From a virus: DNA of 64,000 nt. The stretch is from the IMG/VR virus record IMGVR_UViG_3300028610_002494, positions 32,001 through 96,000 of that record; one strand, written 5' to 3'. The position numbers and the translations under genes were made by a program. Positions 3,023 to 31,175 of this stretch are shown piece by piece (position 1 is the first letter of the stretch; each line of letters opens with the position of its first letter). The notes under the pieces were generated by a model. It was not told the DNA's origin, did not search any database, and saw only the letters and a list, made by a program, of their open reading frames with translations.

Positions 3023-3262
3023 AAAAACAGAGAAAATGTTTTAAAATGAAATTAAAAAAATTATATAAAAAATTAGAAAAAAAATTTGATAAATATTATA
3101 AACGATCCTTTCGTTTTAATGGAAGTATTAGGGAATTTACTTTTGATCCTTATCTTGGATTAAAAAATGATGTTCATCAAGAAATAATTGTTAAGTTAAT
3201 ATCTAATAAAGAAGATTTAAGAAAATTTATAAAAGATATGGAGAAAAAGAGGTAAATTAAAA

Positions 3263-10593: not shown

Positions 10594-10624
10594 ATTATTA
10601 AAAAACATAAAAAGGTAAGCGAAA

Positions 10625-11635: not shown

Positions 11636-11637
11636 AA

Positions 11638-13020: not shown

Positions 13021-13542
13021 ATGGAAAAAATAAAAAAGATAAAATTTGAACTAATTCAAATGGAAAAGAATTATCAAACAAACAAGTCCATTTTCGTGAA
13101 AGACAGAACAATATTTATAGTTGGAAGATCAAATAAGTTAGGTAAAAAAATATTTTTCGTAAATGATTTTTATCCAAGGTTTTATGTAGAAAAAGGAGAA
13201 AATATAGATTTCATCATTGAAGAACATAAAGATAAAATAAAAGAAATTAAAACTAAAGAAGATGGTGAAGAATATAACTACAAAAATCTTGGAGGAAAAG
13301 AAGAACTTATTACAATTTACATTTATAAAACTTCAGATATTGAGATAAGAGATTTGTTTAGCAAAACATATCAAGCAAATATTAAATTTACTGAAGTTTT
13401 TAAAAGGGAAAAACTCATAAAAGATAATTTTTATGTTCCAGAATACGTTTTTGAAATGAAAACAAGAACTTTCAAAATATATGGAATAGAATACATAATG
13501 ATAAAAGAAAATGAGATTGATGGAGGAGAATTGATATTTTAA
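13021..13542 (+). CDS. Stand-alone family B DNA polymerase N-terminal domain
   Basis: IFIVGR...VNDFYPRFYV and IRDLFSKTYQANIKF match PolB NTD motifs (F.PYFY; T.EADI.F); the PolB at 28024 lacks this domain. Confidence 0.7.
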   Translation: MEKIKKIKFELIQMEKNYQTNKSIFVKDRTIFIVGRSNKLGKKIFFVNDFYPRFYVEKGENIDFIIEEHKDKIKEIKTKEDGEEYNYKNLGGKEELITIYIYKTSDIEIRDLFSKTYQANIKFTEVFKREKLIKDNFYVPEYVFEMKTRTFKIYGIEYIMIKENEIDGGELIF

Positions 13543-13907
13543 AAATATACATCTCAGGTGCTGTAGAAGACTCAGAAATAATAAATGAATTAGCAAGATA
13601 TTTTGAAAAATGTAAATGTAAAATAACTCGAAAATGGTGGCACTTTACTACTGAAGATATAATGAGATATCCATTATATATAGAAGAAGATATTAAAGCA
13701 ATCAGAAAATGTGACTTATTTATAATGTATAATACCAATAAAAAAACAAGTGGTAAATTTATAGAACTTGGCATGGCTATTATATTGAATAAACCTATTT
13801 TAATTTATGGAAAAGACATAACAAGTATGTTTAAATCAAGAACACAATATTGTGGAGAATTTAATATTCAAAAAGAGGAGAAAAGATGGAAACTAAAAAA
13901 GAATTAA
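13536..13907 (+). CDS. Nucleoside 2-deoxyribosyltransferase / N-glycosidase-like protein (extended upstream, non-canonical start)
   Basis: LKIYISGA...EDIKAIRKCD...SGKFIELGMAIILNKP; frame open back to TGA at 13518; GGAGG at 13522. Confidence 0.75.
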   Translation: MLKIYISGAVEDSEIINELARYFEKCKCKITRKWWHFTTEDIMRYPLYIEEDIKAIRKCDLFIMYNTNKKTSGKFIELGMAIILNKPILIYGKDITSMFKSRTQYCGEFNIQKEEKRWKLKKN

Positions 13908-14362
13908 GTGTTAAAGATATAGTTAAAAAATTCATAGATGATGAAAAAACTGCTTTCTTTCAACTCATTTATGATAGTATTACACGTGCATCTTCAACAA
14001 AAAGACCAGCAAGAGCAACTATAAGATTGCCAAAATATATTTGTGATACAGACACAAGGGATTTAAGAAAATGGGAAATTATTTGTGTTGCTATTCCAAA
14101 AGAGAAAGTAATGAAACTTTTAGAGGAATAAAATTATGAGATGGAAAATACAAATCATTAATTTAGGAAGTAAAAAGAAAAGAAAGATTAAAGACCTAAA
14201 AGACTATATATATGAAATCGCAGCAAAAATACAGATTTTTGTTGTTGAATTAGCAGAAGAAGATGAAACAATACCACTAACAAAACAAGAAAAATTAAAA
14301 AGAACTGGTGATTTCCTTTTAAAATTACAAAAAGAAATATTAGAATTTAGGAGAAATAAATA

Positions 14363-15022
14363 TTGTCGTTAATGGATTTTATTGGAAATAAAAAACCATT
14401 GGAAGAATTTATCAAATCTAATAAAGAAGATATTAAATTCAAGAAAATTAAATTTGAAGATATAATCTTTAGTGCTTTCGTTCATTTAAAATGTATGAAT
14501 TGTGGAATGTATAAAAGAAATTATCACTGTTTAGCAACTCCAAGATGGAAAAAATCTAAAGAAAACTTATCAAAATATAATAATTATTACTTAGTTTACA
14601 TACAATTTGATAATAAACCAAGAATAAAGGATTATTTCAAGAAAAGAGAAGTGTTTAGAGCACAAGGAAGTAAAGGAATGAATGATTGGTTAATTTATAG
14701 GAATGCTTGTGGTGCAAATCAAGCAATCATAGTTAGTAAATTAAGAAAATTCTTGATAAATGTTAAAACACACTATTCTAAAGAAAAATTAAAACTTTTT
14801 GGTGCAGGTGGTGGATGTCGTGGTTGTAGAGTTTGTGGGTTGGTTAAACCACAAATGATTAAAGAACCAAGAGAACCATGTAAAAAACCAAACAAGACTT
14901 TTGGAGCACCTGAAAGTATCGGAATAGACGTATATGCAACTTTAAAGAGAAATAAAATAGAATATGATGTCATACCAAAAAATAAATTAATAACAGTAGG
15001 GTTGATATGTCAAAAACAATAA
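14363..15022 (+). CDS. DUF2284-like Cys-rich metal-binding protein
   Basis: CMNCGMY...C, GGCRGCRVC...C...APESIGIDVY. Confidence 0.7.
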   Translation: MSLMDFIGNKKPLEEFIKSNKEDIKFKKIKFEDIIFSAFVHLKCMNCGMYKRNYHCLATPRWKKSKENLSKYNNYYLVYIQFDNKPRIKDYFKKREVFRAQGSKGMNDWLIYRNACGANQAIIVSKLRKFLINVKTHYSKEKLKLFGAGGGCRGCRVCGLVKPQMIKEPREPCKKPNKTFGAPESIGIDVYATLKRNKIEYDVIPKNKLITVGLICQKQ

Positions 15023-15451
15023 ATTGTAATCTAAATTGTCCAGCTTGTCATACAAACATAACTAAGATGAAAGAACATCATTTAAATGAAGATTTAGCTG
15101 TATTTAGATGTTTTTATTGTGGATATACTCAAACTATTTCAAATAATGGAGAATTTGAACCACAAGAAGAATTGAATATATATTATAATGAATATATAAA
15201 AAAAGAAATTATGAAGTGAAAAAAGAAAATGGCATGGAAATTAAGAACTTTTAAATGTAAAATTAAAAATAGAGACTATATCTCTGAGATGTTTAAGATA
15301 AATAAAAGAACTTATAATTACACAACAACCTTAGATGGTAAAGTTATTGCTCATGAAGAAAATCTCGAAATGGAGACAGCAGTTATACTTGAAGATCACA
15401 TTAAAGAAATAATTAAAAAAGAAAAAAGAATTTATCAAATGGAAAATTAAA

Positions 15452-16066
15452 ATGAGTCTTGAAAAATTTATAGGTATAAAAAGAGTAATAGATAACACAA
15501 TACCATCAGTTTTTATACATATTTTAGGTGGTCATAGTACTGGAAAGTCTGGAATAGTTGGAAGAATAAAACAAAAATATGGTGCTAAAATTATGGCACT
15601 TGGTAAGTATTCAAGAAGTAGAACAACAAAAGGACTGCTAACTGGTGGAATGGATGGAATACAGATGACCAACAAAGAACGATTTAAATACATTAAAAGA
15701 CATTTTCTTTCAAATAAACAAGTGTTATTGTGTGAAGGAATGATGGTTATTTATTATGATTCTTTTTTAAGCAAATACTATGAACTACAGAAAATAAAAC
15801 ACAGAACTGTTTATGTAATATTACTACAAACTGATATTGAAACAATGCGAAAAAGAATATCTAAAAGAAGTAAAGGAAAAGAACATAGTGAAAAAAGAGA
15901 AAGAAATTTAAGATCAAAAGCAAGTTGTTCTGAATCAACTTATAATAGACTTGAAGAAAATAGTACATTTATTAAAACTAAATTCGATACATCAGATTCT
16001 AAGATTTTTGATAATATAGTTATATATATATCTGAAATTATTGACAAAACACTAAAAAAGGAATAA
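15452..16066 (+). CDS. P-loop nucleotide/DNA-base kinase of the type associated with aGPT-PPlase systems
   Basis: GGHSTGKS, LGKY...GGMDGI, LLCEG, RISKRS lid; near the amino acid:DNA transferase gene. Confidence 0.75.
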   Translation: MSLEKFIGIKRVIDNTIPSVFIHILGGHSTGKSGIVGRIKQKYGAKIMALGKYSRSRTTKGLLTGGMDGIQMTNKERFKYIKRHFLSNKQVLLCEGMMVIYYDSFLSKYYELQKIKHRTVYVILLQTDIETMRKRISKRSKGKEHSEKRERNLRSKASCSESTYNRLEENSTFIKTKFDTSDSKIFDNIVIYISEIIDKTLKKE

Positions 16067-16068
16067 AT

Positions 16069-16641
16069 ATGGATTTTTTGATAAGAAAAATTAAAAATGA
16101 AAATGATAAAACACAAATTAAAATAATTTGTGAAAGTGTGGACAATAAAACAGTGAAATCTTTTCCTAATATTTGGGAAAGATTTAATAACTGGGAAAAG
16201 AATCCACCTTATGTTGTTGAAATAGATGGAAAGATAATTGCTTTTATGGGATTCACGATTAATAGAAATAATTATATTAATTTTTATGATTTTGCAGTTT
16301 TACCTGAATACCAAAGAAAAGGTATTGGTTCAGCTTTATGGGATAAGGTTATTAAAATTGCAACAGAAAATAGTAAAACAAGAATAAAATGTTCTGCTCA
16401 CATAGATTATGGTGGATATTTCTTTTACACTAAGAAAGTTAATTGGAAACCAATTGCAAGAAAAGGGAAAGAATATAAATTTGATGCTTTAATTGAAGGA
16501 ATTGATAATATTAATGATTTTACAAAAAGTATAAAGAAACAAACTCCACCAGATAAAAAAGAGATTGAAAGATATCAGAGATTAGATGAGTATTTTTATA
16601 ACTTAACTAAAAAAATATGGGAGTACTTTAAAAAATGTTAG
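16069..16641 (+). CDS. GNAT acetyltransferase
   Basis: FAVLPEYQRKGIGSAL acetyl-CoA motif; GYFFY. Confidence 0.85.
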   Translation: MDFLIRKIKNENDKTQIKIICESVDNKTVKSFPNIWERFNNWEKNPPYVVEIDGKIIAFMGFTINRNNYINFYDFAVLPEYQRKGIGSALWDKVIKIATENSKTRIKCSAHIDYGGYFFYTKKVNWKPIARKGKEYKFDALIEGIDNINDFTKSIKKQTPPDKKEIERYQRLDEYFYNLTKKIWEYFKKC

Positions 16642-17240
16642 AAACAATTGATGAAGAAGATAAAATAATTAGGAAATTAACTTTTAAAGAAAAATTAGAA
16701 ATTGGAAAATGTGGAGAAAAAATTACAGATGAGAGAATAGTAGATATAATCCATTTCTTTACAGCTTATAATTCACCAAGAAGATGGTATATAGAAAAAA
16801 GTGTATATCAAAAACTATCTCCATATGAAAGATATAAAAAATACCAAGGCAACGGAATTGATGGATTACTTCATTATGATAGCTTATTAGTTCAAGTAAA
16901 AACAAGACAACTTGCATATCTCTTAGAAGAAGACATATATTTTGAATTAGGAAGAAGTATAAAAGGAATAAATAAATATAGTGGATGGTATTGGAAAAAT
17001 ATTGATTTATTATTATATTATTTTTATAGCTTAACAAAAAAGAAGATAATGTGTGGATATGTTATACTTCTGGATGAATTTAAGAAAACATATAACACTC
17101 CTGTAAAAATTAATAAGAAGTTTGAAATAAAATGTGATTGGAACTTTAATCCAACAAAAATATATTTTTGTCCTAAATTTAAAGATTTTCCAAATAATTC
17201 ATTTTATGATATAACACCAATAGTAAAGGAGCTGGAATAA
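16635..17240 (+). CDS. PD-(D/E)xK nuclease-fold protein
   Basis: GE...GIDGL...VQVKTR...DIYFE. Confidence 0.65.
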   Translation: MLETIDEEDKIIRKLTFKEKLEIGKCGEKITDERIVDIIHFFTAYNSPRRWYIEKSVYQKLSPYERYKKYQGNGIDGLLHYDSLLVQVKTRQLAYLLEEDIYFELGRSIKGINKYSGWYWKNIDLLLYYFYSLTKKKIMCGYVILLDEFKKTYNTPVKINKKFEIKCDWNFNPTKIYFCPKFKDFPNNSFYDITPIVKELE

Positions 17241-17241
17241 A

Positions 17242-17658
17242 ATAAAACTAATTCCTGATGTAACAGATAAAACATTAGAAACAAAGAAATTTAATCCAAA
17301 ATTAATTTATGAATCTATATTAAGAGAAACTGATATTTCTGAAGAAGATGCTAAAAGAATTATGGAAGAAGTTGTAAGAAAATTAGTTTTTATGGGTAAA
17401 AAAATAAAGTTCCTATCTGCTCGAATGATAAGAGAAACGACAAATGCAACATTTCCAGAATATGGATTTGAAGAAGAAAGAAAAAAATATACAGTAATTG
17501 GAATTCCATTCTATGATTTAAAAAATTGGGTTGAAGATAAAACCTTAATTCAAACAGAAATTGATAAAAAAATAGTAGAACATATTAGAACTGAATATTT
17601 AAATGTAGAAAACCTAATAGAAACAATAAGAAATGGAGAAAATAATGAGAGATTATAA
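17242..17658 (+). CDS. Stand-alone ATP-cone protein (archaeal NrdD N-terminus-like), extended upstream from an ATA start
   Basis: FNPKLIYESILRETDISEEDAKRIMEEV...FLSARMIRE; frame open from 17227; AGGAG RBS. Confidence 0.7.
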   Translation: MKLIPDVTDKTLETKKFNPKLIYESILRETDISEEDAKRIMEEVVRKLVFMGKKIKFLSARMIRETTNATFPEYGFEEERKKYTVIGIPFYDLKNWVEDKTLIQTEIDKKIVEHIRTEYLNVENLIETIRNGENNERL

Positions 17659-18763
17659 TATAACAGACTACAGAACTGAAAGATGGAATGGTTTTAAGGA
17701 TTATTATATTAAAGAAATGTACTGTGGTGATGATCCAAATTATCCTGCTTTAAATTATATTTGTGATAAATTAAAACTAACTGAAGAACAGAGATATTGG
17801 ATTGCATTCTTATATGGAACTAATTATTGTGTTCCAACAACATATTACATTTTTAAGGAATTTCCTGATTATGAAAGAATAGATATTGACGAACTACAAC
17901 ATTGGTGGGATAAAAATAAAGAAAAAACACATTTCCAAACAGACAGAGCAAAAGTAAAGAACTTTAATTATTTTGTAAAATGTGTTGAAAGCTATCAAGA
18001 TTTAGTAGGAAAAAACCAAGTAGAAACTTTTGATATATTTACTGAAATAGATGATAATCAAGAAAAATATAAAATGGTTTATGATTTTACTAATGAAATA
18101 TTTTATTTTGGAAGATTTAGTTTATTTAATTATCTTGAAACAATTAATAAACTCACTAATTTAGAAATGGAACCAGATGGTTTAGATCTTAAATATGCAG
18201 AGAGTGCACGTAATGGACTATGTTATGCTTGTAATAAAGAAGAGTTTATCACATTACATCACAAAAAATCAAAAGAAAAGATAAATTATAGGTATTTACA
18301 AGAAAAACTCGAAACAATTGTATATGAATTAAAAGAAGAGAACCCTGAGATTGATGTAAACTACTGGAATGTTGAAACTGTTTTATGTGCATATAAAAAA
18401 CTATTCTGGAACACAAGATATCTTGGTTATTATATTGATAGACAAATGGAAGATATAATTAAATTGCAGAATAATGTAGATATAATAGATTGGAAAATTC
18501 TATGGGATTTTAGAGCTGAATTTCATCATCCACAATTTCTTGGTGAATTTAATGACTGGAATGGGATAAGAGAAGAGAACAAGTATTATGTAACAAAACA
18601 TGGAATACTTGATATTAAAGAATTTCCTAAATATAAAACCTGTTTAAGAAAAGTTGATTTACAATCTACTAAAAAACCAAAATTAATAAACAACTTAGAA
18701 CATTATAAAAGAAGAATAATAAGCAAAAAACCTAAACCAAAAAAAATATGGGAATATTTTTAA
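17633..18763 (+). CDS. Amino acid:DNA transferase (alpha-glutamyl/putrescinyl-thymine pyrophosphorylase clade 2-like)
   Basis: QRYWIAFLYG, F.TDR, FGRFSLFNYLE (HhH-like), ETVLCAYKK and YLGYYIDRQ motifs; start may be 17645. Confidence 0.8.
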   Translation: MEKIMRDYNITDYRTERWNGFKDYYIKEMYCGDDPNYPALNYICDKLKLTEEQRYWIAFLYGTNYCVPTTYYIFKEFPDYERIDIDELQHWWDKNKEKTHFQTDRAKVKNFNYFVKCVESYQDLVGKNQVETFDIFTEIDDNQEKYKMVYDFTNEIFYFGRFSLFNYLETINKLTNLEMEPDGLDLKYAESARNGLCYACNKEEFITLHHKKSKEKINYRYLQEKLETIVYELKEENPEIDVNYWNVETVLCAYKKLFWNTRYLGYYIDRQMEDIIKLQNNVDIIDWKILWDFRAEFHHPQFLGEFNDWNGIREENKYYVTKHGILDIKEFPKYKTCLRKVDLQSTKKPKLINNLEHYKRRIISKKPKPKKIWEYF

Positions 18764-18776
18764 AAAGAGGTGAAAT

Positions 18777-19016
18777 ATTATAACAAATCATAAAGAAATA
18801 AGATACAAAATCTGTTTTAATTGTAAGGTGTTTATGCCAATTTTCACTTGTGATGCCATTAATCTACAAGAACTAACAAATTTCGAAAGAATACATAATG
18901 AACATATGGTTCAAACTATAAACTACAACGAAATACCTACAAATTATATATTTATTAAAGGCAAAAATGCAAGAGAAAGAACTTTAACACAAATTCAAAA
19001 AATGTTAGAAGTATGA
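18777..19016 (+). CDS. Small Cys/His Zn-binding protein (ATT/ATA start)
   Basis: YKICFNCKVFMPI...HNEH; GAGGTGA RBS at 18767. Confidence 0.6.
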   Translation: MITNHKEIRYKICFNCKVFMPIFTCDAINLQELTNFERIHNEHMVQTINYNEIPTNYIFIKGKNARERTLTQIQKMLEV

Positions 19017-19174
19017 AAAAATGTAAGGGATGTGGATATCCTCAAAATCCACCAAATAGCAATAAAATTTGGTTATCTGAGGATGGTCTATGTTCAATAT
19101 GTTATTCAAAACAAATAAAACTTAAAAAAAATAATAAAAAACCTAAAAAAATATGGGAATATTATGATAATTAA
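19013..19174 (+). CDS. 53-aa Zn-finger protein ending in KKIWEYY, absent from the ORF track
   Basis: MKKCKGCG...CSIC...KKPKKIWEYYDN*. Confidence 0.7.
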   Translation: MKKCKGCGYPQNPPNSNKIWLSEDGLCSICYSKQIKLKKNNKKPKKIWEYYDN

Positions 19175-19655
19175 AATAAAGAAAATGGGAAGAAATGTAA
19201 AATTACCAACAAAACAAAGAGAAGGAGATGCTGGATATGATGCTTATATTTATGGTTTCCAGAAATATACTCAAAATAAAATTAATAAAAATAAAAATCC
19301 AGTTAATTTGAATAGATCAGAATATATTTTAGAACCATTAGAAAGGGTTGATTGTAGATTAGGATTTGCCACAGAAATTCCTGAAGGATATTATGCTCAA
19401 ATTGTACCAAGAAGTGGTTTAGCAATTTGGAATGGTTTAACTGTATTAAATACACCTGCTACAATTGATTCTGGTTTCAGAAATGAATGGATGGTGATAA
19501 TTGTTAATATTTCTGATAAAAAAGTGAAGTTAATAGTTGGAGACAGAATTTGTCAAATAATCATAAGAAAATTGGTGGAATTTGAATTTAAAGAAGTTAA
19601 AAAATTAAATAAATCTGAAAGAAATTTAAATGGATTAGGGAGCACAGGAAAATGA
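19164..19655 (+). CDS. dut: Trimeric dUTPase
   Basis: AGYD, PRSGLA, TIDSGFR, GDRICQ, GLGSTG. Confidence 0.95.
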   Translation: MIIKIKKMGRNVKLPTKQREGDAGYDAYIYGFQKYTQNKINKNKNPVNLNRSEYILEPLERVDCRLGFATEIPEGYYAQIVPRSGLAIWNGLTVLNTPATIDSGFRNEWMVIIVNISDKKVKLIVGDRICQIIIRKLVEFEFKEVKKLNKSERNLNGLGSTGK

Positions 19656-20854
19656 AAATATTAGTAATAGCAGGATATCTTGAAGCAAATATCAAGAATG
19701 AAACACACAAAACTCAAAGTATTAAAGGTGGAGCATCTAAAAGTATTACAAACATAGTTAATAGCTTAAGAGATATAAAAGGTATCCAAATAAAAGTTTT
19801 AACACAAAAATTTAGAAACAAACTCTTAAAATCACTTGATCTTGATGCTTATATATTAATTCCAAGAATAATAAAAAATATTTCGAAATTTAAACCTAAC
19901 ATTATTATAACACAAGACAGAATTGCTTTTCCAACAATTCTCATTTCCAAAATAATGAAAATTCCTGTTATTTATATAATCAGATCTCCCACAGAGTTTT
20001 GTCCAAAATATGTAGATGTTGTTAACTATGGAAAAGCATGTTCAGGAATAAATAACAGGAGACAATGTTTTAAATGTATTAATAAATGGAAAACCTTGCG
20101 GATTTTAATTGATAATAGACCAAAAGGTTCAGAATATTCCATTAAAGCTTCTTTATTAAATGTTTTTTTTAAAATACGATATTTTATATGTTTATTCAAT
20201 TTGTATTTAACTAAAAAAGCTAATATGATTCTGGTTGCTTCTACATTAATGAAAGAATTTTTTTCCAATAAGATAAACCAAGATAAAATTAAAATAATTA
20301 ATATAACTCCAATCCACAAATATATAAATAATGTAAATAGAAAAAAGAAACAATTGATATTTATCAGAACCCATTATAATGCTGCACATAAAGGTTTAAA
20401 TTTCATTTTAAAATTATCAAAAATTATACCTGAAAAATATCGTATTTTAATAGTTGGCAGTTCTGAGGACAAACAACAAGAAAATAATCCAAAAATATTA
20501 AATGTTGGATATATTTCTTCTAAAATATTACTTAACAAAATGTTTGCAGAATCCAAGATCACTTTAGTTCCATCTTTCTTTACTGAAGCTTTTGGAAGGA
20601 TTATTCCTGAAAGTTTGTCAAATAAAACTCCAGTTATCTCTTCTCCACAATGTGGTGCAAACCAATTTTTTAAGGAAAAAGATTTTTTAAGGGTTGTTCC
20701 TTTAAAATTAAACTTATGGATAAAAACAATTGAAGATATTATCCAAAATCCTCCAATTATTACTGATAATGATATTTCTCAAATTTATGAGCAATTCTCA
20801 TTAGAAAAGAGTAAAAAAGATTTAATGAATATAATAAAAAATATTAAAAGGTGA
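19652..20854 (+). CDS. GT4-family glycosyltransferase
   Basis: GGA, HKGL, VPSFFTEAFGRIIPESL...PVI. Confidence 0.9.
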   Translation: MKILVIAGYLEANIKNETHKTQSIKGGASKSITNIVNSLRDIKGIQIKVLTQKFRNKLLKSLDLDAYILIPRIIKNISKFKPNIIITQDRIAFPTILISKIMKIPVIYIIRSPTEFCPKYVDVVNYGKACSGINNRRQCFKCINKWKTLRILIDNRPKGSEYSIKASLLNVFFKIRYFICLFNLYLTKKANMILVASTLMKEFFSNKINQDKIKIINITPIHKYINNVNRKKKQLIFIRTHYNAAHKGLNFILKLSKIIPEKYRILIVGSSEDKQQENNPKILNVGYISSKILLNKMFAESKITLVPSFFTEAFGRIIPESLSNKTPVISSPQCGANQFFKEKDFLRVVPLKLNLWIKTIEDIIQNPPIITDNDISQIYEQFSLEKSKKDLMNIIKNIKR

Positions 20855-21437
20855 TTAAAATAAAAGAATGGAAAGAATGGAATTCATTTATACAATGGAT
20901 ATGTATTATTGGTTTTTTTTTAATAATTATAATGGTATTTATTGAAGTTTTTTATTTTATTATAAATATTCCAGATGAACTTATTCTTGGGATTCGTGAA
21001 AATAGTATAGGGAAACATTATCTCAATAATCCAGAATTAGTAGCTGAGATGGAAGCTTTAGCATCATCATCTGAGTTTTTACATTATACAATAGTATTTT
21101 TATTATATACATTGATATGTATAGTATTATTTTTTTCATATAATGAGGTTAGAGAAAATGAAAAAATATTTAAAAAAAGGAAAAAACATAGAAAAAAATA
21201 AATTGAAACACATTTTTAAATCTATTTTATTCTATACTAAACTTGTGTTTTATGTTTCAATAGGAATTTTAAGTTTAGGAATGATATTTGTATTGTTTAT
21301 GGGTTCGGATTTAGAAGAAGAAATATTTGAAGATGAATATGAATTAATGAGGAGAAGAGAACAATTAGAAGATGATTTAATATCAGAAAAGACAAAAAAA
21401 TACAATAAATTAACTTTAATAAAAAAAGAGGAAAATA

Positions 21438-22181
21438 ATGAAAGAGAAATATAAAGATTGGAAAGAAGCATTTCAAATGAAAAAAAAGTATTCAAAAAAC
21501 TTTCCATTTTGTTTCTATGATTTAGCTGCAAAATATTTACCTGAAGATGAGAAAGCTATAGTTATTGATGTTGGTTGTGGAGAATGTAGATTTGAGGATT
21601 ATCTTGATCTATGGAACAAATATAAAAATTTATTTGTTTTAGATGGAAATCTTGAAACTGTTGATAAAATAAAAGAAAAAACAAGATTGATACATGAATT
21701 TGATTATACAATTGAATATATAGCACCAAATAGAATGTTATTTGAAAATGAATCAGTGGATTATATATTTTGTGGACACTTAATAGAACATCTTGATTTC
21801 AAGGAATTATATAAATTATTTAAAGAATTTGATCGAGTTTTAAAAAATGATGGAATTCTTGTTGTAAGCACTCCTATGTTATGGAATGGTTTTTATGGGA
21901 CACTTAGTCATGTAAAACCTTATCATCCAGCACTTTTCAAGGATTATTTTTATACTGATGATGAAAATATAAACCCATCATATAAACCTATTTCCAGAAA
22001 ATATAAACTTGAGGAACTTGTTTATAGATACCATACATTTGTAGATATACATAATACAATGGGATCATCTATAAAAGCATTTGATTTTCTAATTCAATTC
22101 TCGAAGTATGTTTTGAGAGCTTTAGGAATAAAAAAATATACTCAAACTGGATATACAATAATTTTAAGGAAACAAAAATGA
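21438..22181 (+). CDS. Class I SAM-dependent methyltransferase
   Basis: IDVGCGE, HLIEHL, RVLKNDG...STP. Confidence 0.9.
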   Translation: MKEKYKDWKEAFQMKKKYSKNFPFCFYDLAAKYLPEDEKAIVIDVGCGECRFEDYLDLWNKYKNLFVLDGNLETVDKIKEKTRLIHEFDYTIEYIAPNRMLFENESVDYIFCGHLIEHLDFKELYKLFKEFDRVLKNDGILVVSTPMLWNGFYGTLSHVKPYHPALFKDYFYTDDENINPSYKPISRKYKLEELVYRYHTFVDIHNTMGSSIKAFDFLIQFSKYVLRALGIKKYTQTGYTIILRKQK

Positions 22182-22858
22182 ATAACATTAAAGATACAAG
22201 CTGGATTTCATATAAAACACTTCAATCACATTTTATGCAAATTTATTTAACAATAAAACTAAAAGCTAAAGATGTTCTTGAGATTGGAGTATTAAGGAAA
22301 ATTGTCACTTCTATTTTAAATCAATATTGTAATTTAACCACTCTTGATTTTAAAGAAGAGTTTAATCCAGACTTGATTATTGATATTACTGATTCTAAAC
22401 AGCTTGATACCATTAAAAATAATGCTTATGATTTAATATTACTCTGTGAAGTGTTAGAACATATTTCTTATGAAAAAATAGATAAAATACTCAAAATATT
22501 AAAAAAGAAAACAAGAAAATACCTAATAATTTCAGTTCCAAATCAAACTACATATATAAATCTAACTTTCTTTAATCACAGTAATAATAGAATACTTAAA
22601 AAAATAAAAGATTATTTTAATTTATTTTTTATTAAAATAGGAAACTTAATTTCAAAATTAGACTATAATATAAGGAAAAAACATAGAAAATATAAATCCG
22701 AAGGGACTTTCTTTCCTCATTGTTGGGAATTAGGAGTAGATAAATATAGTATAAACACATTTAAAAAACTATTAGAAAAGTATTTTACAATTATAAAAGA
22801 AGAAAGACTTAGAGATCATCCTTTTCACCATTTTTTTATATTAAAAAAGAGGTTATAA
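22178..22858 (+). CDS. Class I SAM-dependent methyltransferase
   Basis: VLEIG, CEVLEHI, IISVP, HCWELG. Confidence 0.85.
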   Translation: MNNIKDTSWISYKTLQSHFMQIYLTIKLKAKDVLEIGVLRKIVTSILNQYCNLTTLDFKEEFNPDLIIDITDSKQLDTIKNNAYDLILLCEVLEHISYEKIDKILKILKKKTRKYLIISVPNQTTYINLTFFNHSNNRILKKIKDYFNLFFIKIGNLISKLDYNIRKKHRKYKSEGTFFPHCWELGVDKYSINTFKKLLEKYFTIIKEERLRDHPFHHFFILKKRL

Positions 22859-22859
22859 A

Positions 22860-23594
22860 ATGGGATTAACAAATGTTATCATTGATTTTCAAGAAGAAAT
22901 CATTCAAAAAATAGGTTTTCAATGGCAAAACATAAGAATATGTGAACTTGGTGCTATGTATATGAGAACAGTTGATATTCCTGCAAAAGAATATTATATT
23001 AAAGAAAAAAAAGTATTAGAACATATATCTATTGATTGGAATGGTATGTATGATTCACTTCCAATTGATTTATGTTTTCCTGTTCCTGAAGAATTATTAA
23101 ATAGATTTCATTTAATAACTGATTTTGGAACAATAGAACATGTAGATAATCAATATCAAGTTTTTAAAAATACACATGATATATGTACTAAAAATGGAAT
23201 TATGATCCACATCTTACCAACCTTAAATTATTGGAAATTTCATTGTCGTTATTTTTATACAAAAGAATTCTTTTTAAAATTAGCAGAATTATGTAAATAT
23301 AAAACTCTTGATTTAAAAGAAGGAAATTGTTGTGATCCACCAATATTTAAGAGAGATTTGATTTATGTAGCATTTTTAAAACTAAATAATAATAAATTTA
23401 CTTCAGAAAAAGAATTTAATAAGCTTAATATATTTGATATAAAAGAACCAGATAATACTAACAAACTTAGAACAGAAAATATTGTTTACATTTTATGGAA
23501 ATTAACAGAACACCAATTTTTTTTGAAGGGTTTTCGTAAAATACTTAAAAATATCTATAAGATATATATAAATGTTAAAAAAGGTATAAAATGA
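22860..23594 (+). CDS. Class I SAM-dependent methyltransferase-like protein
   Basis: ICELG, SIDWNG, DFGTIEHV, GIMIHILP. Confidence 0.8.
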   Translation: MGLTNVIIDFQEEIIQKIGFQWQNIRICELGAMYMRTVDIPAKEYYIKEKKVLEHISIDWNGMYDSLPIDLCFPVPEELLNRFHLITDFGTIEHVDNQYQVFKNTHDICTKNGIMIHILPTLNYWKFHCRYFYTKEFFLKLAELCKYKTLDLKEGNCCDPPIFKRDLIYVAFLKLNNNKFTSEKEFNKLNIFDIKEPDNTNKLRTENIVYILWKLTEHQFFLKGFRKILKNIYKIYINVKKGIK

Positions 23595-24466
23595 AAACAA
23601 GAATATTCATACTCTGTGCAGGGAAAAATGTAAAATATTATGGAATTACAAGACAATTATTAAAGATAAATGGAGAAGAAATATTAGGAAGAATGATTAG
23701 ATTAATAAAAGAAGAATGTAATTATGAGATTTTTATAATCACCAATAATGATATTATAGAGAATTATATTAAAAGTATTAGAAATAATAAAATTATACTT
23801 TTTCATCCTGCTGCTGAACGATATCATATGGAAAGCTTATATTCAACTAAAGAAGAATGGGTTGAAAGAAATATATTCTTATTTGGTGATGTAGTGTTCT
23901 CTAAACATGCTATAAAAAAAATATTAAATTCTGATAATAAATTAAGTTTCTTCTTTAGAATAAAACCACATTTATATTTAAACAAACGTTATCCTGAAGG
24001 TTTTGGTATGTTAATTCCATTGAATGAAACTAATAGGATGTCAGATATCATTTTAAGATCCTATAAAAGAGCATCTATACATGGTGGAGTATTTATATTT
24101 AATAGTATTTGGAAAGAACTTAATTTAAGATTAGGAGAAGAACATTTAGAATTTGAATCTTATAAAACACGTGATTTAATCAGTAAACTATGCTTAAATG
24201 AATTTATAAGAGGTATTTTTTATGGAATAATACGATCCATTGAAGGAAAAATAATACGATTTATTTTTTATAAAGCTAAAATATCTGATAAATGGAAAAA
24301 TAAACTTGTTAAATTATTTTTAGGGAAAAAAATTCCAGATTATAATAAAAACTTATTATCATCTAAATACATTGTAGAAATACATGATATAACTGATGAT
24401 ATAGATCATCCAAGAGAGTATAAAGATTATATTAAACTAATAGTGAAAAAAGGTTTATTACAATGA
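23591..24466 (+). CDS. Nucleotidyltransferase (sugar/choline-phosphate NTP-transferase fold)
   Basis: ILCAG...RQLLKINGE, FGDV, DDID..EY. Confidence 0.75.
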   Translation: MKTRIFILCAGKNVKYYGITRQLLKINGEEILGRMIRLIKEECNYEIFIITNNDIIENYIKSIRNNKIILFHPAAERYHMESLYSTKEEWVERNIFLFGDVVFSKHAIKKILNSDNKLSFFFRIKPHLYLNKRYPEGFGMLIPLNETNRMSDIILRSYKRASIHGGVFIFNSIWKELNLRLGEEHLEFESYKTRDLISKLCLNEFIRGIFYGIIRSIEGKIIRFIFYKAKISDKWKNKLVKLFLGKKIPDYNKNLLSSKYIVEIHDITDDIDHPREYKDYIKLIVKKGLLQ

Positions 24467-25377
24467 TGGATGCTACTGATAAATTTACTACAATTGGTTT
24501 TGAAATAACGAACCACTGTAATAAAAACTGTAAATTTTGCACTAAGATGACAGGATATAAATATAAAATCAGATATACAAAATTAGATGATTATGAATAT
24601 GTTGTGTCTTGTATAAACAAGAAAGACAGAGAAAAATTTAGAAAAGTAGTGATCACTGGTGGAGAACCACTTTTACATCCACATTTTATAGAATTAATGA
24701 ATTTAGTAAGAAAAGATTTTCCGAAAGCTGAGATTAAAGTACAATCAAATGGAAGATTAATTAAAAGATTGCCACAAAAGAAATTAAGAATTTTACCTAA
24801 TATAAAAAAAGTAATATTTTCAGTATCCCATTATCCAAGCTGGAACGATGAAATAAAGAAAATATATGACGGAAATATTAAAACACCGTTAATTTATAGA
24901 AGAGTAATCAGAAAACTAACCAAAAATAACAAATTTATAAAATTACTCAATTTAGATTATAGAATTCCATTTATAAAAAAAGTAAGACGATTTATTAGCA
25001 ATCCTTTTAAAAGAGGAAATGTTTACTTTAAGAATTTCACAGGATTTCGTGATCCTTATGTAGATCCAAATCTAACGAAAGAAAATGCAAAAATAGTTAG
25101 AAAAACATGTCATTATTTTATTTGGATAATAGACAGAAAGCTTTATAGCTGTTGTGTAGATTCTGTTTATGAAAGATATTATAACACCAAATCTGTTGGT
25201 ATTAAATTTGATAAAAACTGGAAAAAAAATTATTTCAAATTACCAACATGGAGAGCTTGTGCTCATTGTCCACAAGGATATAATAGGTACATAGTAATTA
25301 GTTCAGGATTTGAAAAATATAAATTAATTAGTTTAAGAAAAAGATTAGAATTTGTGAGGATTAAAACCCATGTTTAA
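24463..25377 (+). CDS. Radical SAM protein
   Basis: CNKNCKFC, TGGEPLLHP, SNG; C-terminal Cys cluster. Confidence 0.9.
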   Translation: MMDATDKFTTIGFEITNHCNKNCKFCTKMTGYKYKIRYTKLDDYEYVVSCINKKDREKFRKVVITGGEPLLHPHFIELMNLVRKDFPKAEIKVQSNGRLIKRLPQKKLRILPNIKKVIFSVSHYPSWNDEIKKIYDGNIKTPLIYRRVIRKLTKNNKFIKLLNLDYRIPFIKKVRRFISNPFKRGNVYFKNFTGFRDPYVDPNLTKENAKIVRKTCHYFIWIIDRKLYSCCVDSVYERYYNTKSVGIKFDKNWKKNYFKLPTWRACAHCPQGYNRYIVISSGFEKYKLISLRKRLEFVRIKTHV

Positions 25378-25804
25378 AAAAATAAAATTATCACAATTCA
25401 TTGGCAGACAATTATCAAGATTAAAAATGGGTCAAGTATATTATGTAATGGGAATGTATTCTATAACAGCTGTAGGAATATTAAAAGTAGCATTTCCACA
25501 AATAAGTATTTGGACATTTATACTTTTTATTCCATTTATGTTTGTTGGAGCTTTTTTAATTGGTTTTATTGCAGATAGAAGTAATGTTACAACGATGGAT
25601 TATCAGAAGACAATAGAGATGACAAACAGATATTTAACCATTTTAGACTTTAAAAATAATGATTTTAGAATACTCCAAATGGAAACTATGTTTGAATGGA
25701 TAAAATCCTTAAAAGAAAATAAACCTTTAGATAAAAATATATTAAATGAGAAATATAAAGAATTTTTAAATAAATGGAGTCCTAAAAAAGAAAATGAAAA
25801 ATAA
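25370..25804 (+). CDS. Membrane protein
   Basis: Two hydrophobic helices. Confidence 0.6.
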   Translation: MFKKIKLSQFIGRQLSRLKMGQVYYVMGMYSITAVGILKVAFPQISIWTFILFIPFMFVGAFLIGFIADRSNVTTMDYQKTIEMTNRYLTILDFKNNDFRILQMETMFEWIKSLKENKPLDKNILNEKYKEFLNKWSPKKENEK

Positions 25805-25968
25805 AATAATAACACCTAAAAACTTAACAAATCAACAAAAATGTGATATTGATTGGATTATAAATGTATTAACCAAATCAACAAAAAACTCAATAAGTTC
25901 TGTAAATATTTATTTTAATGGGTTTGATATTAAATTTAATTATAAAATAAAAATTAAGCTGAGGAAAA

Positions 25969-26424
25969 ATGGAAAAAAATAAAGATTTAATTGATACTTT
26001 AGATCCACTACATTATTACACTAAAAAGGATTTATGTGGAAATTGTAAATATATAAAATCATTTTTATGTGATAAGAGATATGCTGAAGGAATTAACATA
26101 ACCTATTTAGAACAATATCAAATTAAAATATATATATATAAATTTATATCAAATAATTTAAGAAAGATAATTGATTCATTACACGACAAAGAACTATATC
26201 ATCATAGACAAGGTGGATATTTTGCTTTAAAATCAACCAATTTCCATTGTGGTGAATCTTGTGATTGTGATTGTTCTACAGAAAGATGCTGGGAATTTGA
26301 AAGAGTACCAAGTAGAAGACAGCCACATTGCATCAAGTTTTTTGGTTTGGATTTACCTGAAAAATATAAAGAGAACAATATTACATTTATTTTAGGCAAT
26401 TTAGAGTTTGAGAAAATAATATAA
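25969..26424 (+). CDS. Cys-rich protein, possibly a degenerate DUF2284-like paralogue
   Basis: CGNC...C, CGESCDCDC...C...R..CIKFFGLD. Confidence 0.45.
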   Translation: MEKNKDLIDTLDPLHYYTKKDLCGNCKYIKSFLCDKRYAEGINITYLEQYQIKIYIYKFISNNLRKIIDSLHDKELYHHRQGGYFALKSTNFHCGESCDCDCSTERCWEFERVPSRRQPHCIKFFGLDLPEKYKENNITFILGNLEFEKII

Positions 26425-26450
26425 ACAAGGTTTATATAAACAAGGTTTAT
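26421..26450 (+). repeat. Palindromic motif B (ATAAAC-AAG-GTTTAT), tandem x2
   Basis: ATAAACAAGGTTTAT twice; overlaps the stop codon of the upstream ORF. Confidence 0.9.
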
Positions 26451-26462
26451 ATAAAATAAAAT

Positions 26463-26500
26463 AAAGTTAAATAGTAAAATAGTCTTTAAATAATTATAGA
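26463..26500 (+). promoter_or_regulatory. Conserved archaeal-type promoter (motif C)
   Basis: TTAAATA TATA-like box followed by AAATAGTCTTTA (26477-26488). Confidence 0.6.
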
Positions 26501-26515
26501 GGTTAAAAATTAAAT

Positions 26516-27805
26516 ATGAAATATAAAATGAAAGAATTAAGTATTGAAATAACATATAAATGTCCAATGAATTGTATTCATTGTAGCAGTAGAGCAGAAC
26601 TTGAAAATGAGACAATGATACCAACAGAAAAGATTTTAGAAATGATTGGAAGATGTAAAATATACTGTGGAACTGAATGTGTTTCTCTTTCAGGTGGAGA
26701 ACCATTTGAACATCCTGATTTCTGGAAAATATTAAAACACATTAAAGCTCAAGGTTTAAAAAGTATAGTTTATTCTTGTGGAATTGAGATGTCACCTGAT
26801 GGATATTATTGGTGTTTTAGTGATGAAAGAATAAAAAAACTAAAAACCTTATGTGATGTGTTAATAATAAGTTTACATGGAACTGGTGATAAACATAATA
26901 AAATATTAAATATTGGAGATACTGCTTTTTGGAATGTATTATATACAATAATGAAAGCAGTGCGTGAAAGTATTAAAGTTGAAATTCACTTTGTTCCTAT
27001 GTCTTTTAACTATAAAGACATTAAAATTATATATGGAGTCTGTATGGCACTTGGTGTTTCTAAAATGTCAATATTACGATATGTACCACAAGGAAGAGGA
27101 TTAGAAACAAGTAAAACTGAAGGAGAAATAAACCTAAATAAACCACAATTTATCGAACTACAATATGATATGAGATATATAAGAGATTTATCTAAAATCA
27201 CTGGTATGACTGAATTTAGAATTGGTATTCCAGCAGACTTTACATTTTTACTTGATTATCTTGAAGGGAATAATGATGCCAAAAAAACTAAAGCTTGTAC
27301 AGGTGGAAAAACTAAAATACTTGTAAAAGCTGATGGGTTTGTTCAAGTATGTCCTGCTTGGAAAGAACTTGATCACCTTTCAGCAGGAAATATTTATAAA
27401 GAAGATATTGTAGATATATGGAAAAAAGGAAATACTTATTGTAAATTTAGAGAATTTACCTATAAAGATTTAGGAGAACCATGTAAAAATTGTAAACTTG
27501 TTGAAAGTTGTTTAGGTGGTTGTGGAGCTCAAAGAATTTTGAATTCAACCTTTAAAGAAATAAATGGACTAAAAATTGCTCCTGATCCATTATGTTTTTA
27601 TGATGAAATAGAACTTACTAAAAAAGGGTTGATTGAATTAATAGATATATTAGAACTAAAGAAATGGTTAATCAATAAAAAAGAAGAATATGAAGAAATT
27701 GCTGTTAATTCAATGTCAGATTCACGAGCAGTTAATTATATGGCAAGAACAACTACTATTAAAGAAATCCTTAAATATATTGAAGAAATAAAAGAGATTA
27801 ATTAA
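26516..27805 (+). CDS. Radical SAM/SPASM protein
   Basis: CPMNCIHC, SGGEP; SPASM-like CTGG...CP...CKNC...CLGGC. Confidence 0.9.
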   Translation: MKYKMKELSIEITYKCPMNCIHCSSRAELENETMIPTEKILEMIGRCKIYCGTECVSLSGGEPFEHPDFWKILKHIKAQGLKSIVYSCGIEMSPDGYYWCFSDERIKKLKTLCDVLIISLHGTGDKHNKILNIGDTAFWNVLYTIMKAVRESIKVEIHFVPMSFNYKDIKIIYGVCMALGVSKMSILRYVPQGRGLETSKTEGEINLNKPQFIELQYDMRYIRDLSKITGMTEFRIGIPADFTFLLDYLEGNNDAKKTKACTGGKTKILVKADGFVQVCPAWKELDHLSAGNIYKEDIVDIWKKGNTYCKFREFTYKDLGEPCKNCKLVESCLGGCGAQRILNSTFKEINGLKIAPDPLCFYDEIELTKKGLIELIDILELKKWLINKKEEYEEIAVNSMSDSRAVNYMARTTTIKEILKYIEEIKEIN

Positions 27806-28023
27806 ATGTATGCAATCCCAAGGAAGAAAAGGAAAAATAAATCAATAGAAATCTCTGAGAAATTATTTTCAGAAGCTATACATAATCAAGATTATGAAAA
27901 AGCAGCATCGGTTGTTTTTTGGTGTGTTCTTAAAGAATTTGCTCAAGAAGGAATTATAAGTGCATTAGAAAATGGAAATTCATTCTATGAAAGAAAAAAA
28001 TATAGAAATAGAGGTTTATAATA

Positions 28024-30381
28024 TTGAGAAGAAGATTCACATTTGATATAGAAATTAATTATGATGAAATAGACCCATTTGATTTAGTAATTAAAAAAGG
28101 ATCAAGTCCTATTCAAATGTTTGGTTGTTATGATTATTATAAAAATAAATTTTATTCCTTTTTTTATCATAAAAACGTGAAATTAATACCTGCAGAAGAA
28201 ATTAAAAATAAAATTGATAAAAAAATATATTTAATGCTTAAAAAACATTTTGGAAATCAAAAATTTGTTGTTAAAGAAGGATTTTTTAATTCTACTGAAA
28301 GTGGAAGAAAATGGAAATGTAGATATCTTTCTTTTAATAATGAAAAAATAATGATTAGAGCATTTATGAAATTTGTTAAAGATATCAGTCCAGACATTTG
28401 GTCTGGGTTCTTTATTGAAACATTTGATCTTGTTTATATTATGAACAGATGTAAAACACTAAAAGTTAGTTATAAATATTTAAGTCCACTTTATGAAGCT
28501 TATATAAGTCATGGAAGAGCTAAAATAAGAGGAAGTATAATATATGACACTCCTAAAACTTATGCTAAATATATGGGAACTCATCGTCATGCTAATTCAC
28601 TGAAAAAAATAGCTGAATCACATCTGAAAAGAGATGATGACCACAAAATAACTAAAACATCTGAAAGTATTATAAACGAAGATTGGTATGATAATGATTG
28701 GAAAAAATTCATAGAATATTGTTTAGTAGATGTAGAATTATGTGTTTTATTAGAAGAAGAACTTGAACTAATAAGCATGGCAGAAGGATTTGAAAAATTT
28801 ACTGGAACCAACCCTGAATTTGTATTTTTTCCTTCTCATCTAATTGAAAGTACATTTAATTTCATTAAACCTATTTATGAAGAACAAGTATTAAAAAATG
28901 AATATAAAATTGCATTTAACACTAAAAAGAGAAGAAAATTTGAGAAAGCAGCAGGTGCAAAAGTATTAGAAAGTAAAAAAGGATTTTATCGAAAAGGATT
29001 AATGATAATCCTTGATCTTGCAAAAGAATATCCAAAAATAATAGAAAGTATAAATATATCACCTGAAACTTTAGTTAAAATAATAGATCAAAATGAGAAA
29101 GACAAATACAATTATTGTAAAGAAAATGATGTATATTATGTTAAAGAACCAATAGGATTTGTTCCTTTTGCTTTTAAATTTCTTTATTTAATAAGAGATC
29201 GTATAGAAAAAGAAAGAGATAAATTTGAATTTGGTTCTGATAAATTTAATGATATGAACAAAAAAAGACAAACAGTAAAAGATTTGATAAATGCTGTCAC
29301 AGGTCAAGCTGATTATGCAGACTCAATTATTCTTAGTCCAATATGTGCTAATTCATGTAGATTAACTGGACAAAAAGAAATAGTAATATCTGTTAATTAC
29401 ACAAAAAAATTTGGTATTGAATTAAAATTAAAACTTAAGGTTATTTATGGTGATACTGATTCTATTTTTGTTTGGTTAGAAAATGTACAAGATGTTGAGA
29501 TTGCAAAGAAAATAGCTAAAGAAATATGTAAATGGATACAAGTTGGGTTTGATAAATATGCAAAAGAACTAAATTTAAAATCTCACCAATTTGAAATAGG
29601 TTTAGAAAAAATATTAGATATTTTTGTTAGTATAGGCAAAAAGAAAAAGTATTTTGGGCATATTTTATGGGCAGATGGTAATTATGTAAAAGAAGAAAGC
29701 AGTTTACTTGTAAAAGGATTTGAGACAAGAAGATCAGACAGTAGTGATTTTACAGATAAAATACAAAAAGAAATATTTGGATTAATAAACAAAACAAGAA
29801 TATTAGGATGGCATAAAGTAAGAAAAAAAATACTACATAAAATAAAAGTGGAATATCCAGATGGGTTTTCAGAAGATAATTTACTTACAATTGGAATACC
29901 TAAAAAAATAAATAAACGATTTAAAGATTACAAAGTGACAAATGCTCATCTAAGAGGATGTGAATATGCTAATAAATATGTTAATGCTAATTTTCATGCT
30001 GGTTCTAAACCTAAATTGATTTATATTAAAGAGGTTAAACAAAAAGGTGATATAACTTTTCCAAAAAAATATCCACCAACAGATGTATTATGTGTGCAAG
30101 AAGGTATGAAAATTCCAGAAGGAGTTTTTATTATTGACAAAAAAACAATGCTGGAAAAAACAGTTTATAAAAAATTAAGACAAACACTTGATGTTGTAGG
30201 AATACCAATATCACAAATACAAAGTGGATTGAAACAAACTAATATAAAAGATTATTTTAATAAATTTAGTAATGACAAAAAAATAACGAAAAAACATATT
30301 TTAACTATAAATAAAGAAAAGTTAGGTAAAATATTAATTAACTCTAAAAATATTCTTAAAACTATGAAAAAAGAGGTTTAA
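28024..30381 (+). CDS. polB: Family B DNA polymerase (exonuclease and polymerase domains, no NTD)
   Basis: ExoI FDIE, ExoIII YCLVD, motif C YGDTDS, KKKY, KGFE.RRSD, C-terminal PIP box QTNIKDYF. Confidence 0.95.
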   Translation: MRRRFTFDIEINYDEIDPFDLVIKKGSSPIQMFGCYDYYKNKFYSFFYHKNVKLIPAEEIKNKIDKKIYLMLKKHFGNQKFVVKEGFFNSTESGRKWKCRYLSFNNEKIMIRAFMKFVKDISPDIWSGFFIETFDLVYIMNRCKTLKVSYKYLSPLYEAYISHGRAKIRGSIIYDTPKTYAKYMGTHRHANSLKKIAESHLKRDDDHKITKTSESIINEDWYDNDWKKFIEYCLVDVELCVLLEEELELISMAEGFEKFTGTNPEFVFFPSHLIESTFNFIKPIYEEQVLKNEYKIAFNTKKRRKFEKAAGAKVLESKKGFYRKGLMIILDLAKEYPKIIESINISPETLVKIIDQNEKDKYNYCKENDVYYVKEPIGFVPFAFKFLYLIRDRIEKERDKFEFGSDKFNDMNKKRQTVKDLINAVTGQADYADSIILSPICANSCRLTGQKEIVISVNYTKKFGIELKLKLKVIYGDTDSIFVWLENVQDVEIAKKIAKEICKWIQVGFDKYAKELNLKSHQFEIGLEKILDIFVSIGKKKKYFGHILWADGNYVKEESSLLVKGFETRRSDSSDFTDKIQKEIFGLINKTRILGWHKVRKKILHKIKVEYPDGFSEDNLLTIGIPKKINKRFKDYKVTNAHLRGCEYANKYVNANFHAGSKPKLIYIKEVKQKGDITFPKKYPPTDVLCVQEGMKIPEGVFIIDKKTMLEKTVYKKLRQTLDVVGIPISQIQSGLKQTNIKDYFNKFSNDKKITKKHILTINKEKLGKILINSKNILKTMKKEV

Positions 30382-30383
30382 AT

Positions 30384-31175
30384 ATGAAAAAAACAAAAAT
30401 TAGCAGTAGTAAAATTGATGGATATGATTGGTGTAATAGAAAATATAGAATTAGAGAAATAGAAAAAATTCCATCTGGAGTTCCACCACATCCTTCATTA
30501 ATACTTGGAAAAGTAAGTCATAAAGAAATACATAATTTTTGGGAAAGATATAACCTTGATCTGGATAATTATGTTTTTCATATACAAAATTACTATACTA
30601 AAACCATTAAAAGAATTAGAGGATTAAGTGAAGAAAATTATATAAAATTCCAGTTGTATTTCTCAAATTTTATTAGTTTCCAGAAAAGAAGAATTGATAC
30701 TTACATAAAAAAATATGATGATGAATATTATATTATTGATAAGCTGTTTTTTCCCATAATCTCCGAAAAATATGGAAAAGTAAATATAACAAGTGATATT
30801 ACTTTTGGATTCATTATAGATTCTTTATTTTGGAATCCTACTGGCAATATCCTAATAGACTGGAAAACAGATAAGGATTGTACTGAGGAAAAATTCAAGA
30901 GTCATATACCTCAACTTAATAGATATTCAGAATGTTTACCACATATTAACCATAGTTGTAAAAAAATAGGGATATACTTCCTAAAAGACTCATTATTTTT
31001 TAACAGGTTAAACACAATAGGATATTCACTTGAAAAAGAAGTATTGACTTTTATAAGAAAAATACAGATCTCTAAATTTCCAAAGGTGTCAAAAAGAGAT
31101 AAATGGAAATGTCATAATGCAGATCTCAGTTATACTTGTGAATATTATCCAGAAATATGTACAGGAGTTGAATAA
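30384..31175 (+). CDS. Cas4/RecB-like PD-(D/E)xK exonuclease
   Basis: N-terminal C, G...H, IIDS...IDWKT, QLNRY, C-terminal C..C..C. Confidence 0.8.
   Translation: MKKTKISSSKIDGYDWCNRKYRIREIEKIPSGVPPHPSLILGKVSHKEIHNFWERYNLDLDNYVFHIQNYYTKTIKRIRGLSEENYIKFQLYFSNFISFQKRRIDTYIKKYDDEYYIIDKLFFPIISEKYGKVNITSDITFGFIIDSLFWNPTGNILIDWKTDKDCTEEKFKSHIPQLNRYSECLPHINHSCKKIGIYFLKDSLFFNRLNTIGYSLEKEVLTFIRKIQISKFPKVSKRDKWKCHNADLSYTCEYYPEICTGVE

Follow-up and report, generated by a model that had tools for sequence, protein, structure and literature searches.

Family B DNA polymerases (PolB) that are naturally split over two genes are known from the Methanobacteriales, magrovirus group B, cyanophage P-SSP7 and PhiKZ, and in all of these the cut lies in the catalytic (palm) part of the enzyme (PMC4104785, PMC5434244, PMC13648687). 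Here we describe a virus locus in which the cut lies between the N-terminal domain (NTD) and the exonuclease domain. The window, meaning the whole stretch of 64,000 nucleotides (nt) that was analyzed, comprises bases 32001-96000 of a 111,837-bp IMG/VR virus record (IMGVR_UViG_3300028610_002494) with direct terminal repeats. The two open reading frames (ORFs) concerned, with lengths in amino acids (aa), are:

13021..13542, + strand: free-standing PolB N-terminal domain gene, 173 aa (recognized by an NTD hidden Markov model (HMM), by hhalign and by its AlphaFold (AF2) fold)
28024..30381, + strand: PolB exonuclease-polymerase core, 785 aa, with a TTG start at ExoI and without NTD (Pfam DNA_pol_B, PF00136, and DNA_pol_B_exo1, PF03104)

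The Methanobacteriales, magrovirus group B and P-SSP7 likewise obtain one family B polymerase from two genes, the products of which must cooperate (PMC4104785, PMC5434244). There, however, the cut is inside the palm and the NTD stays with the exonuclease, whereas here it falls at the NTD/exonuclease boundary (HMM positions 177-196, before ExoI). The known magrovirus-type split is also present in two IMG/VR loci (L013:2547-5548 and L014:9971-12972), where PolB is divided inside the catalytic domain over adjacent genes (555 + 303 aa, ~430 nt apart), in contrast to the distance of 6.7-14.5 kb found here. In PhiKZ the polymerase also comes from two separate genes, and DNAP-N (gp82) and DNAP-C (gp50) form a stable 1:1 complex (PMC13648687); that complex was demonstrated, whereas for the present virus we can only infer assembly. 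The parts of the Nanoarchaeum equitans PolB are likewise encoded at non-adjacent positions, but are joined by protein trans-splicing through a split intein (PMC4104785), and no intein is seen here. Finally, the catalytic protein opens at the exonuclease domain in the NTD-less PolBs of minor bacterial groups as well (PMC12926913); no report was found of a separately encoded NTD for these enzymes, whereas the present genome retains a matching NTD gene. A literature search (with most subscription journals outside its reach) returned no report of a PolB that is split at the NTD/exonuclease boundary. The split is a real feature, and a variant of split PolB that is new relative to the literature searched.

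The 173-aa ORF has no match in Pfam or PHROGs, nor in a single-sequence phmmer search against the PDB, and its kinship was revealed by profiles and structure alone. An HMM built from 105 archaeal PolB NTDs, run over the 816 six-frame ORFs of the genome, gives 13021-13542 as its sole match (E 4.5e-7, with the next best at E 2.7), and the hallmark blocks of the domain are aligned (IFIVGR/PVIHVFGR, FYPRFYVE/FRPYFYVP and YQANIKFTEVF/YEADILFPNRF). Comparison of the ORF family with archaeal PolB NTDs by hhalign yields a probability of 97.85% (E 6.6e-13), and in a PDB search with the family profile 21 of the 25 matches fall on archaeal PolB residues 19-126. The profile of the stand-alone NTDs (A2) also matches the N-termini of fused viral PolBs, at E ~1e-8. 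The AF2 model of the protein has a predicted local distance difference test score (pLDDT) of 82.9 and a predicted template modelling score (pTM) of 0.76. When this model is used as a Foldseek query, the top 50 matches are all family B polymerases, aligned at their N-terminal 130-160 residues. With VIA-align, model residues 4-172 are placed on residues 2-145 of E. coli Pol II (Z 11.9, root mean square deviation 3.2, 137 residues aligned), on residues 1-158 of the Pyrobaculum PolB (Z 10.3) and on residues 1-132 of Thermococcales PolBs (Z ~9, 16-20% identity). The protein extends 26 residues past the domain core. Based on these profile and model matches the 173-aa ORF encodes a genuine PolB NTD, in agreement with the first-pass annotation, which had noticed NTD-like motifs at this position.

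The same annotation had read the PolB at 28024 as opening directly at ExoI, and this holds: the N-terminus is L/M-RRRFTFDIE. Measured against a full-length archaeal PolB HMM the core covers positions 196-893 of 894, so that ~195 N-terminal positions are missing, and against phrog_262 the match begins only at profile position 117 of 856. The frame contains no start codon farther upstream. In the alignment with archaeal PolBs the catalytic motifs are invariant, namely ExoI (DxE), ExoII, ExoIII, motifs A (DxxxLYP), B and C (YGDTDS) and KKKY, including residues D8/E10, F134/D135, Y232/D236, D331/Y336, Y475-S480 and K539-Y543. By these aligned motifs the 785-aa protein qualifies as the catalytic core of a family B DNA polymerase. 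A QTNIKDYF sequence lies ~45 residues before its C-terminal end.

The abrupt opening is common to the clade: all 13 of its PolBs (748-823 aa, 54-81% identity) start with M-RR-x-x-[TSC]-[FL]-DIE, and the position of the start codon is common to six loci (TTG in four, GTG or ATG in the others), with a Shine-Dalgarno-like GAGGT upstream in most. Directly upstream of polB a further conserved gene is located:

27806..28021, + strand: conserved 71-aa ORF that stops 2 nt before the polB start (70-77% identical in loci L001, L006, L008 and L010)

This ORF has no family match in Pfam or PHROGs, and in related loci it is not always found beside polB. A frameshift or a hidden fused NTD just upstream of polB is ruled out, as the 216 nt there encode the conserved 71-aa protein. 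Because the start is conserved in relatives and a different conserved protein lies just upstream, the absence of the NTD from the core is real and old, and not the result of a frameshift or a mis-called start. More generally, one could argue that the split is an artefact and that a fused gene is concealed by mis-assembly, by a frameshift or by an overlooked start, given that the sequence is a metagenome assembly and that polB starts with TTG. We give this almost no credence: apart from the conserved start site (with its Shine-Dalgarno-like sequence) and the protein upstream, ~26 ORFs separate the two parts, eight independent loci have no NTD gene in the visible 2.4-10 kb upstream of polB, and one locus has the same split order.

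Together, the two proteins complement each other. The full-length archaeal PolB HMM matches exactly two ORFs of the genome, the NTD ORF at positions 43-177 and the core at 196-893, without overlap, and on this alignment the two amount to one polymerase's worth of sequence. Moreover, the alignment indicates that the core retains the stretch between ExoIII and motif A. In the Thermococcus gorgonarius PolB this stretch (residues 327-368) was reportedly described by Hopfner et al. in 1999 as the second half of the N-terminal domain. In solved PolBs this second segment folds together with the first. The half-domain retained by the core therefore argues for a partner protein. Modelled by itself, the core gave an AlphaFold structure of low confidence (pLDDT 50.9), which was not used.

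An exhaustive HMMER search with the NTD found only short relatives. In total, the NTD profile search yielded 34 stand-alone homologues of 53-218 aa, ~30 of which are full length at 149-218 aa; none of the 34 has a Pfam domain and all are unnamed or labelled 'hypothetical protein'. The most informative relative is locus L007 (67 kb, PolB 59% identical), where the NTD gene (2698-3222) and polB (9926-12340) occur in the same order and on the same strand as in the window, with a spacing of 6.7 kb against 14.5 kb. The protein clusters of the L007 NTD and PolB comprise 7 contigs each, with a longest contig of 67,207 bp in both; similarly, the longest contig is 17,412 bp for both P0013 and P0151. Judging from these loci and from the uniform start of the polymerases, the split is clade-wide.

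Given the distance to the core and the failure of standard family libraries to detect it, the 173-aa ORF might be taken for a functionless, decaying leftover of the 5' end of an old polB. This is very improbable, since the frame is intact in the ~30 independent metagenome proteins (across 31-85% identity) and the fold is predicted with confidence. In addition, the NTD proteins of the window and L007 share 71% identity, with a nonsynonymous divergence (dN) of 0.205, against 59% and 0.294 for the core, and synonymous sites are saturated. Such rates point to purifying selection on an NTD gene that is at least as conserved as the core, and hence not to a remnant.

As to the origin of the split, the best match to the core outside the clade is P0016, a PolB of 793 aa with a fused NTD (E 6.7e-69, 30% identity), and the NTD of this same protein ranks first among the 105 fused NTDs when compared with the stand-alone NTD profile. 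Because both halves share this nearest fused relative, the sequence comparison favours fission of a single ancestral PolB gene over separate acquisition of the parts. The first-pass annotation had suggested looking for relatives with a fused gene and no island of modification genes; at 30% identity P0016 is the nearest fused relative and no close one was found. It is known that phage genes can be split when a gene for a mobile endonuclease inserts into them. In two metagenome proteins (P0166 and P0167) a CoiA-like nuclease domain (PF06054) of ~340 aa is located in frame upstream of a complete NTD copy; the two may be truly fused, or the gene caller may have read through a mobile nuclease gene. 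As a hint that a mobile endonuclease caused the splitting this is a lead only.

The archaeal PolB NTD is known as the uracil read-ahead domain, and in Pfu-Pol the pocket consists of Y7, P36/Y37, residues 90-97 and 111-116, R119 and D123 (PMC2241895). Compared with the uracil-sensing NTD of Pfu and Tgo the window protein has the same fold and keeps the equivalents of P36 (P52), R97, Y110, I114 and F116, with an aliphatic I107 at V93. It differs, on the other hand, at Y37 (R53), P115 (K122), R119 (V126) and D123 (E130). Across the family Y37 and R119 change together: R/V is found in 28 sequences and Y/R in 12, the latter forming the stand-alone P0125 subfamily, which keeps Y37, R119 and D123. 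The V93 loop varies as well: the window protein lacks 1 aa there, and P0166 has a 23-aa insert. Because Y37/R119 are replaced by R/V and the V93 loop varies, the canonical pocket appears to have been remodelled in the subfamily of the window protein.

Starting from the observed homology and fold of both pieces, their complementarity, conservation and co-occurrence, and the intact core motifs, we consider it likely that the gene of an ancestral archaeal-type PolB was split at the NTD/exonuclease boundary and that its products now form a two-subunit polymerase. The ancestral gene would have undergone fission between the N-terminal and exonuclease domains, so that two genes on one strand, separated by 14.5 kb, would now yield the 173-aa NTD protein and the 785-aa core. 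The NTD protein would then bind non-covalently to the second NTD segment, which the core retains between ExoIII and motif A, and this docking would rebuild the template-strand entry cleft. Neither protein has a Pfam match to an intein/Hint domain, and neither piece has spare length for one; the halves are therefore not spliced together. That a PolB in pieces can assemble follows from PhiKZ, where the halves from separate genes form a stable complex.

Some observations weigh against a two-subunit enzyme. Polymerases of the phi29 type, in which the catalytic protein opens at the exonuclease domain, work without an NTD. NTD-less PolBs also exist in minor bacterial groups (PMC12926913), and therefore the virus core might work alone. 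Furthermore, three canonical pocket residues (Y37, P115 and R119) differ from archaeal PolBs, and in locus L009 no NTD gene is found within 10 kb on either side of polB, which may reflect a larger gap or a true absence of the gene. If the core polymerase does work alone, the free NTD would have a separate job, either as a factor that binds single-stranded DNA, RNA or modified bases, or as a regulator of the neighbouring modification genes. Apart from the NTD-less enzymes, this would agree with the joint replacement of Y37 and R119 by R and V, with the two relatives that carry an NTD copy in frame behind a CoiA-like nuclease domain, and with the tight coupling of the NTD gene to the gene that follows it:

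13545..13907, + strand: nucleoside 2-deoxyribosyltransferase-like (Ndt-like) gene right after the NTD gene, a conserved gene of the interval (Pfam Nuc_deoxyrib_tr)

Mechanical annotation gives this gene 81 aa from 13662, but the frame is open and homologous from 13545, right past the NTD stop, without ATG, GTG or TTG; the L007 homologue (125 aa) has a GTG start 2 nt past the NTD stop. An open frame without canonical start in the window, next to a GTG at 2 nt in L007, suggests a non-canonical start or translational coupling. Nevertheless, we regard a core that works alone as unlikely, since the second NTD segment is still in the core, the pieces are exactly complementary and share the same nearest fused relative, and the core is no better conserved than the NTD. 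A two-subunit polymerase remains our preferred explanation.

The interval between both genes had been described as consisting entirely of base- or glyco-modification genes. For about half of it this is correct: ~13 of the ~26 ORFs have such domains (ADDT/aGPT-Pplase, dUTPase, GT1, two methyltransferases, an NTP transferase, two radical SAM domains, GNAT, DUF2284 and the Ndt-like domain), and the remainder are small ORFs without match. In addition to the Ndt-like and 71-aa ORFs, the features are:

14363..15022, + strand: DUF2284 metal-binding protein, conserved interval gene (Pfam E 4.3e-18; L007:3660-4331 is 54% identical)
15452..16066, + strand: P-loop kinase-like protein, variable cargo (weak AAA_17/AAA_18 match, below the Pfam cut-off)
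16069..16641, + strand: GNAT acetyltransferase, variable cargo (Pfam Acetyltransf_1, E 4.9e-15)
17633..18763, + strand: amino acid:DNA transferase/aGPT-Pplase family, thymidine hypermodification type (Pfam ADDT, E 6.9e-20)
19164..25377, + strand: dUTPase, GT1 glycosyltransferase, two membrane ORFs, methyltransferases, NTP transferase and a radical SAM gene (Pfam)
25969..26424, + strand: Cys-rich 151-aa protein, conserved interval gene (54-73% identical in L003, L007 and L009; no Pfam match)
26516..27805, + strand: radical SAM/SPASM protein, conserved upstream neighbour of polB (Pfam Radical_SAM + SPASM; ~70% identical in L003, L007 and L009)

Four interval genes are common to the window and L007 (Ndt-like, DUF2284, the 151-aa Cys-rich protein and radical SAM/SPASM), whereas the window has ~11 kb of extra cargo (roughly 15007-25982), running from the kinase-like gene through the radical SAM gene. 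The cargo genes at 19164-25377 have no homologues in L003 or L007. An ADDT homologue is also present upstream of polB in L003, where the ADDT block occurs but the glyco block is absent; in other loci methyltransferases are found directly upstream of polB. From this gene content the interval is best described as a long-lived mosaic hot spot with four conserved genes and variable cargo.

These patterns do not support, as it was stated, the proposal in the first-pass annotation that insertion of the island split polB: in L007 the gap is only 6.7 kb and holds the four shared genes, and the hypermodification and glyco genes are extra cargo in the window. The interval has no flanking repeats, and the search for them gave only weak AT-rich matches. 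In our preferred reading the interval would since the fission have become a site that gathers and exchanges genes for nucleotide and DNA modification.

Within the cargo a repeated DNA block (16610-16643, 18725-18774 and 19113-19170) encodes the same C-terminal peptide, ..KKIWEYF. It terminates the GNAT and ADDT genes, with the third copy just before the dUTPase gene, and the peptide resembles a PCNA-interacting protein (PIP) box without the Q. A thymidine hypermodification set would comprise an ADDT/aGPT-Pplase enzyme, a 5-hmdU DNA kinase and a supply of 5-hmdU; of these ADDT is present, along with dUTPase, and the kinase match is below the cut-off. A ThyX-family gene is located at 142-789 of the window (E 6.4e-43), which bears on the feeding of a thymidine-hypermodification pathway; no ThyA-type enzyme was found in the genome.

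The detached NTD might even have evolved for the replication of DNA with hypermodified pyrimidines. It would then be a template-reading subunit that can be exchanged or regulated and has a remodelled pocket, and read-ahead stalling of the archaeal type would be switched off or retuned to the modified base of the virus. This is a speculative idea to which we assign a low probability.

The window has a G+C content of ~24%, and all ORFs of at least 180 aa are on the + strand. The replication genes are archaeal in type, including an RFC-like clamp loader and a PriL-like primase subunit. Two conserved neighbours flank the split polymerase:

11587..12495, + strand: probable sliding clamp, conserved upstream neighbour of the NTD gene (protein-language-model feature matches to viral sliding-clamp/PCNA clusters, 0.92-0.95, a lead only)
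30384..31175, + strand: PD-(D/E)XK (Cas4-like) nuclease, conserved downstream neighbour of polB (Pfam PDDEXK_1, PHROG exonuclease; syntenic in L001, L002, L003, L007 and L009)

The clamp candidate has a homologue in L007 (1774-2625, 47% identical), which is syntenic with the NTD gene there; PCNA_N of Pfam has no match anywhere in the genome. At 3263-4696 of the window a single 477-aa protein combines an N6/N4 DNA methylase domain with an Mrr-type restriction endonuclease domain.

Marine-sediment and other metagenomes supplied the close relatives of the PolB, and among cellular enzymes the PolBs of haloarchaea and methanogens are nearest (26-30% identity). Among GenBank phages tblastn found no match for the 173-aa NTD and matched the core only distantly (<27% identity), and scans of IMG/VR with the core, the stand-alone NTD profile (A2), P0016 and P0161 gave no relatives. 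Scans of GTDB genomes with A3 and A2 found none either, and therefore provide no provirus or host lead.

Overall, the split has consequences for annotation as well as for the study of the enzyme. Gene callers and polymerase surveys that demand a single full-length PolB would miss or mis-score such a split, and ~30 metagenome proteins (149-218 aa) without Pfam domain now gain a family assignment. The role of the NTD in family B polymerases is 'not completely understood' (PMC7544198). If the present reading is true, a natural enzyme with its NTD in trans would permit direct tests, with and without the domain, of template handling, fidelity and base sensing.

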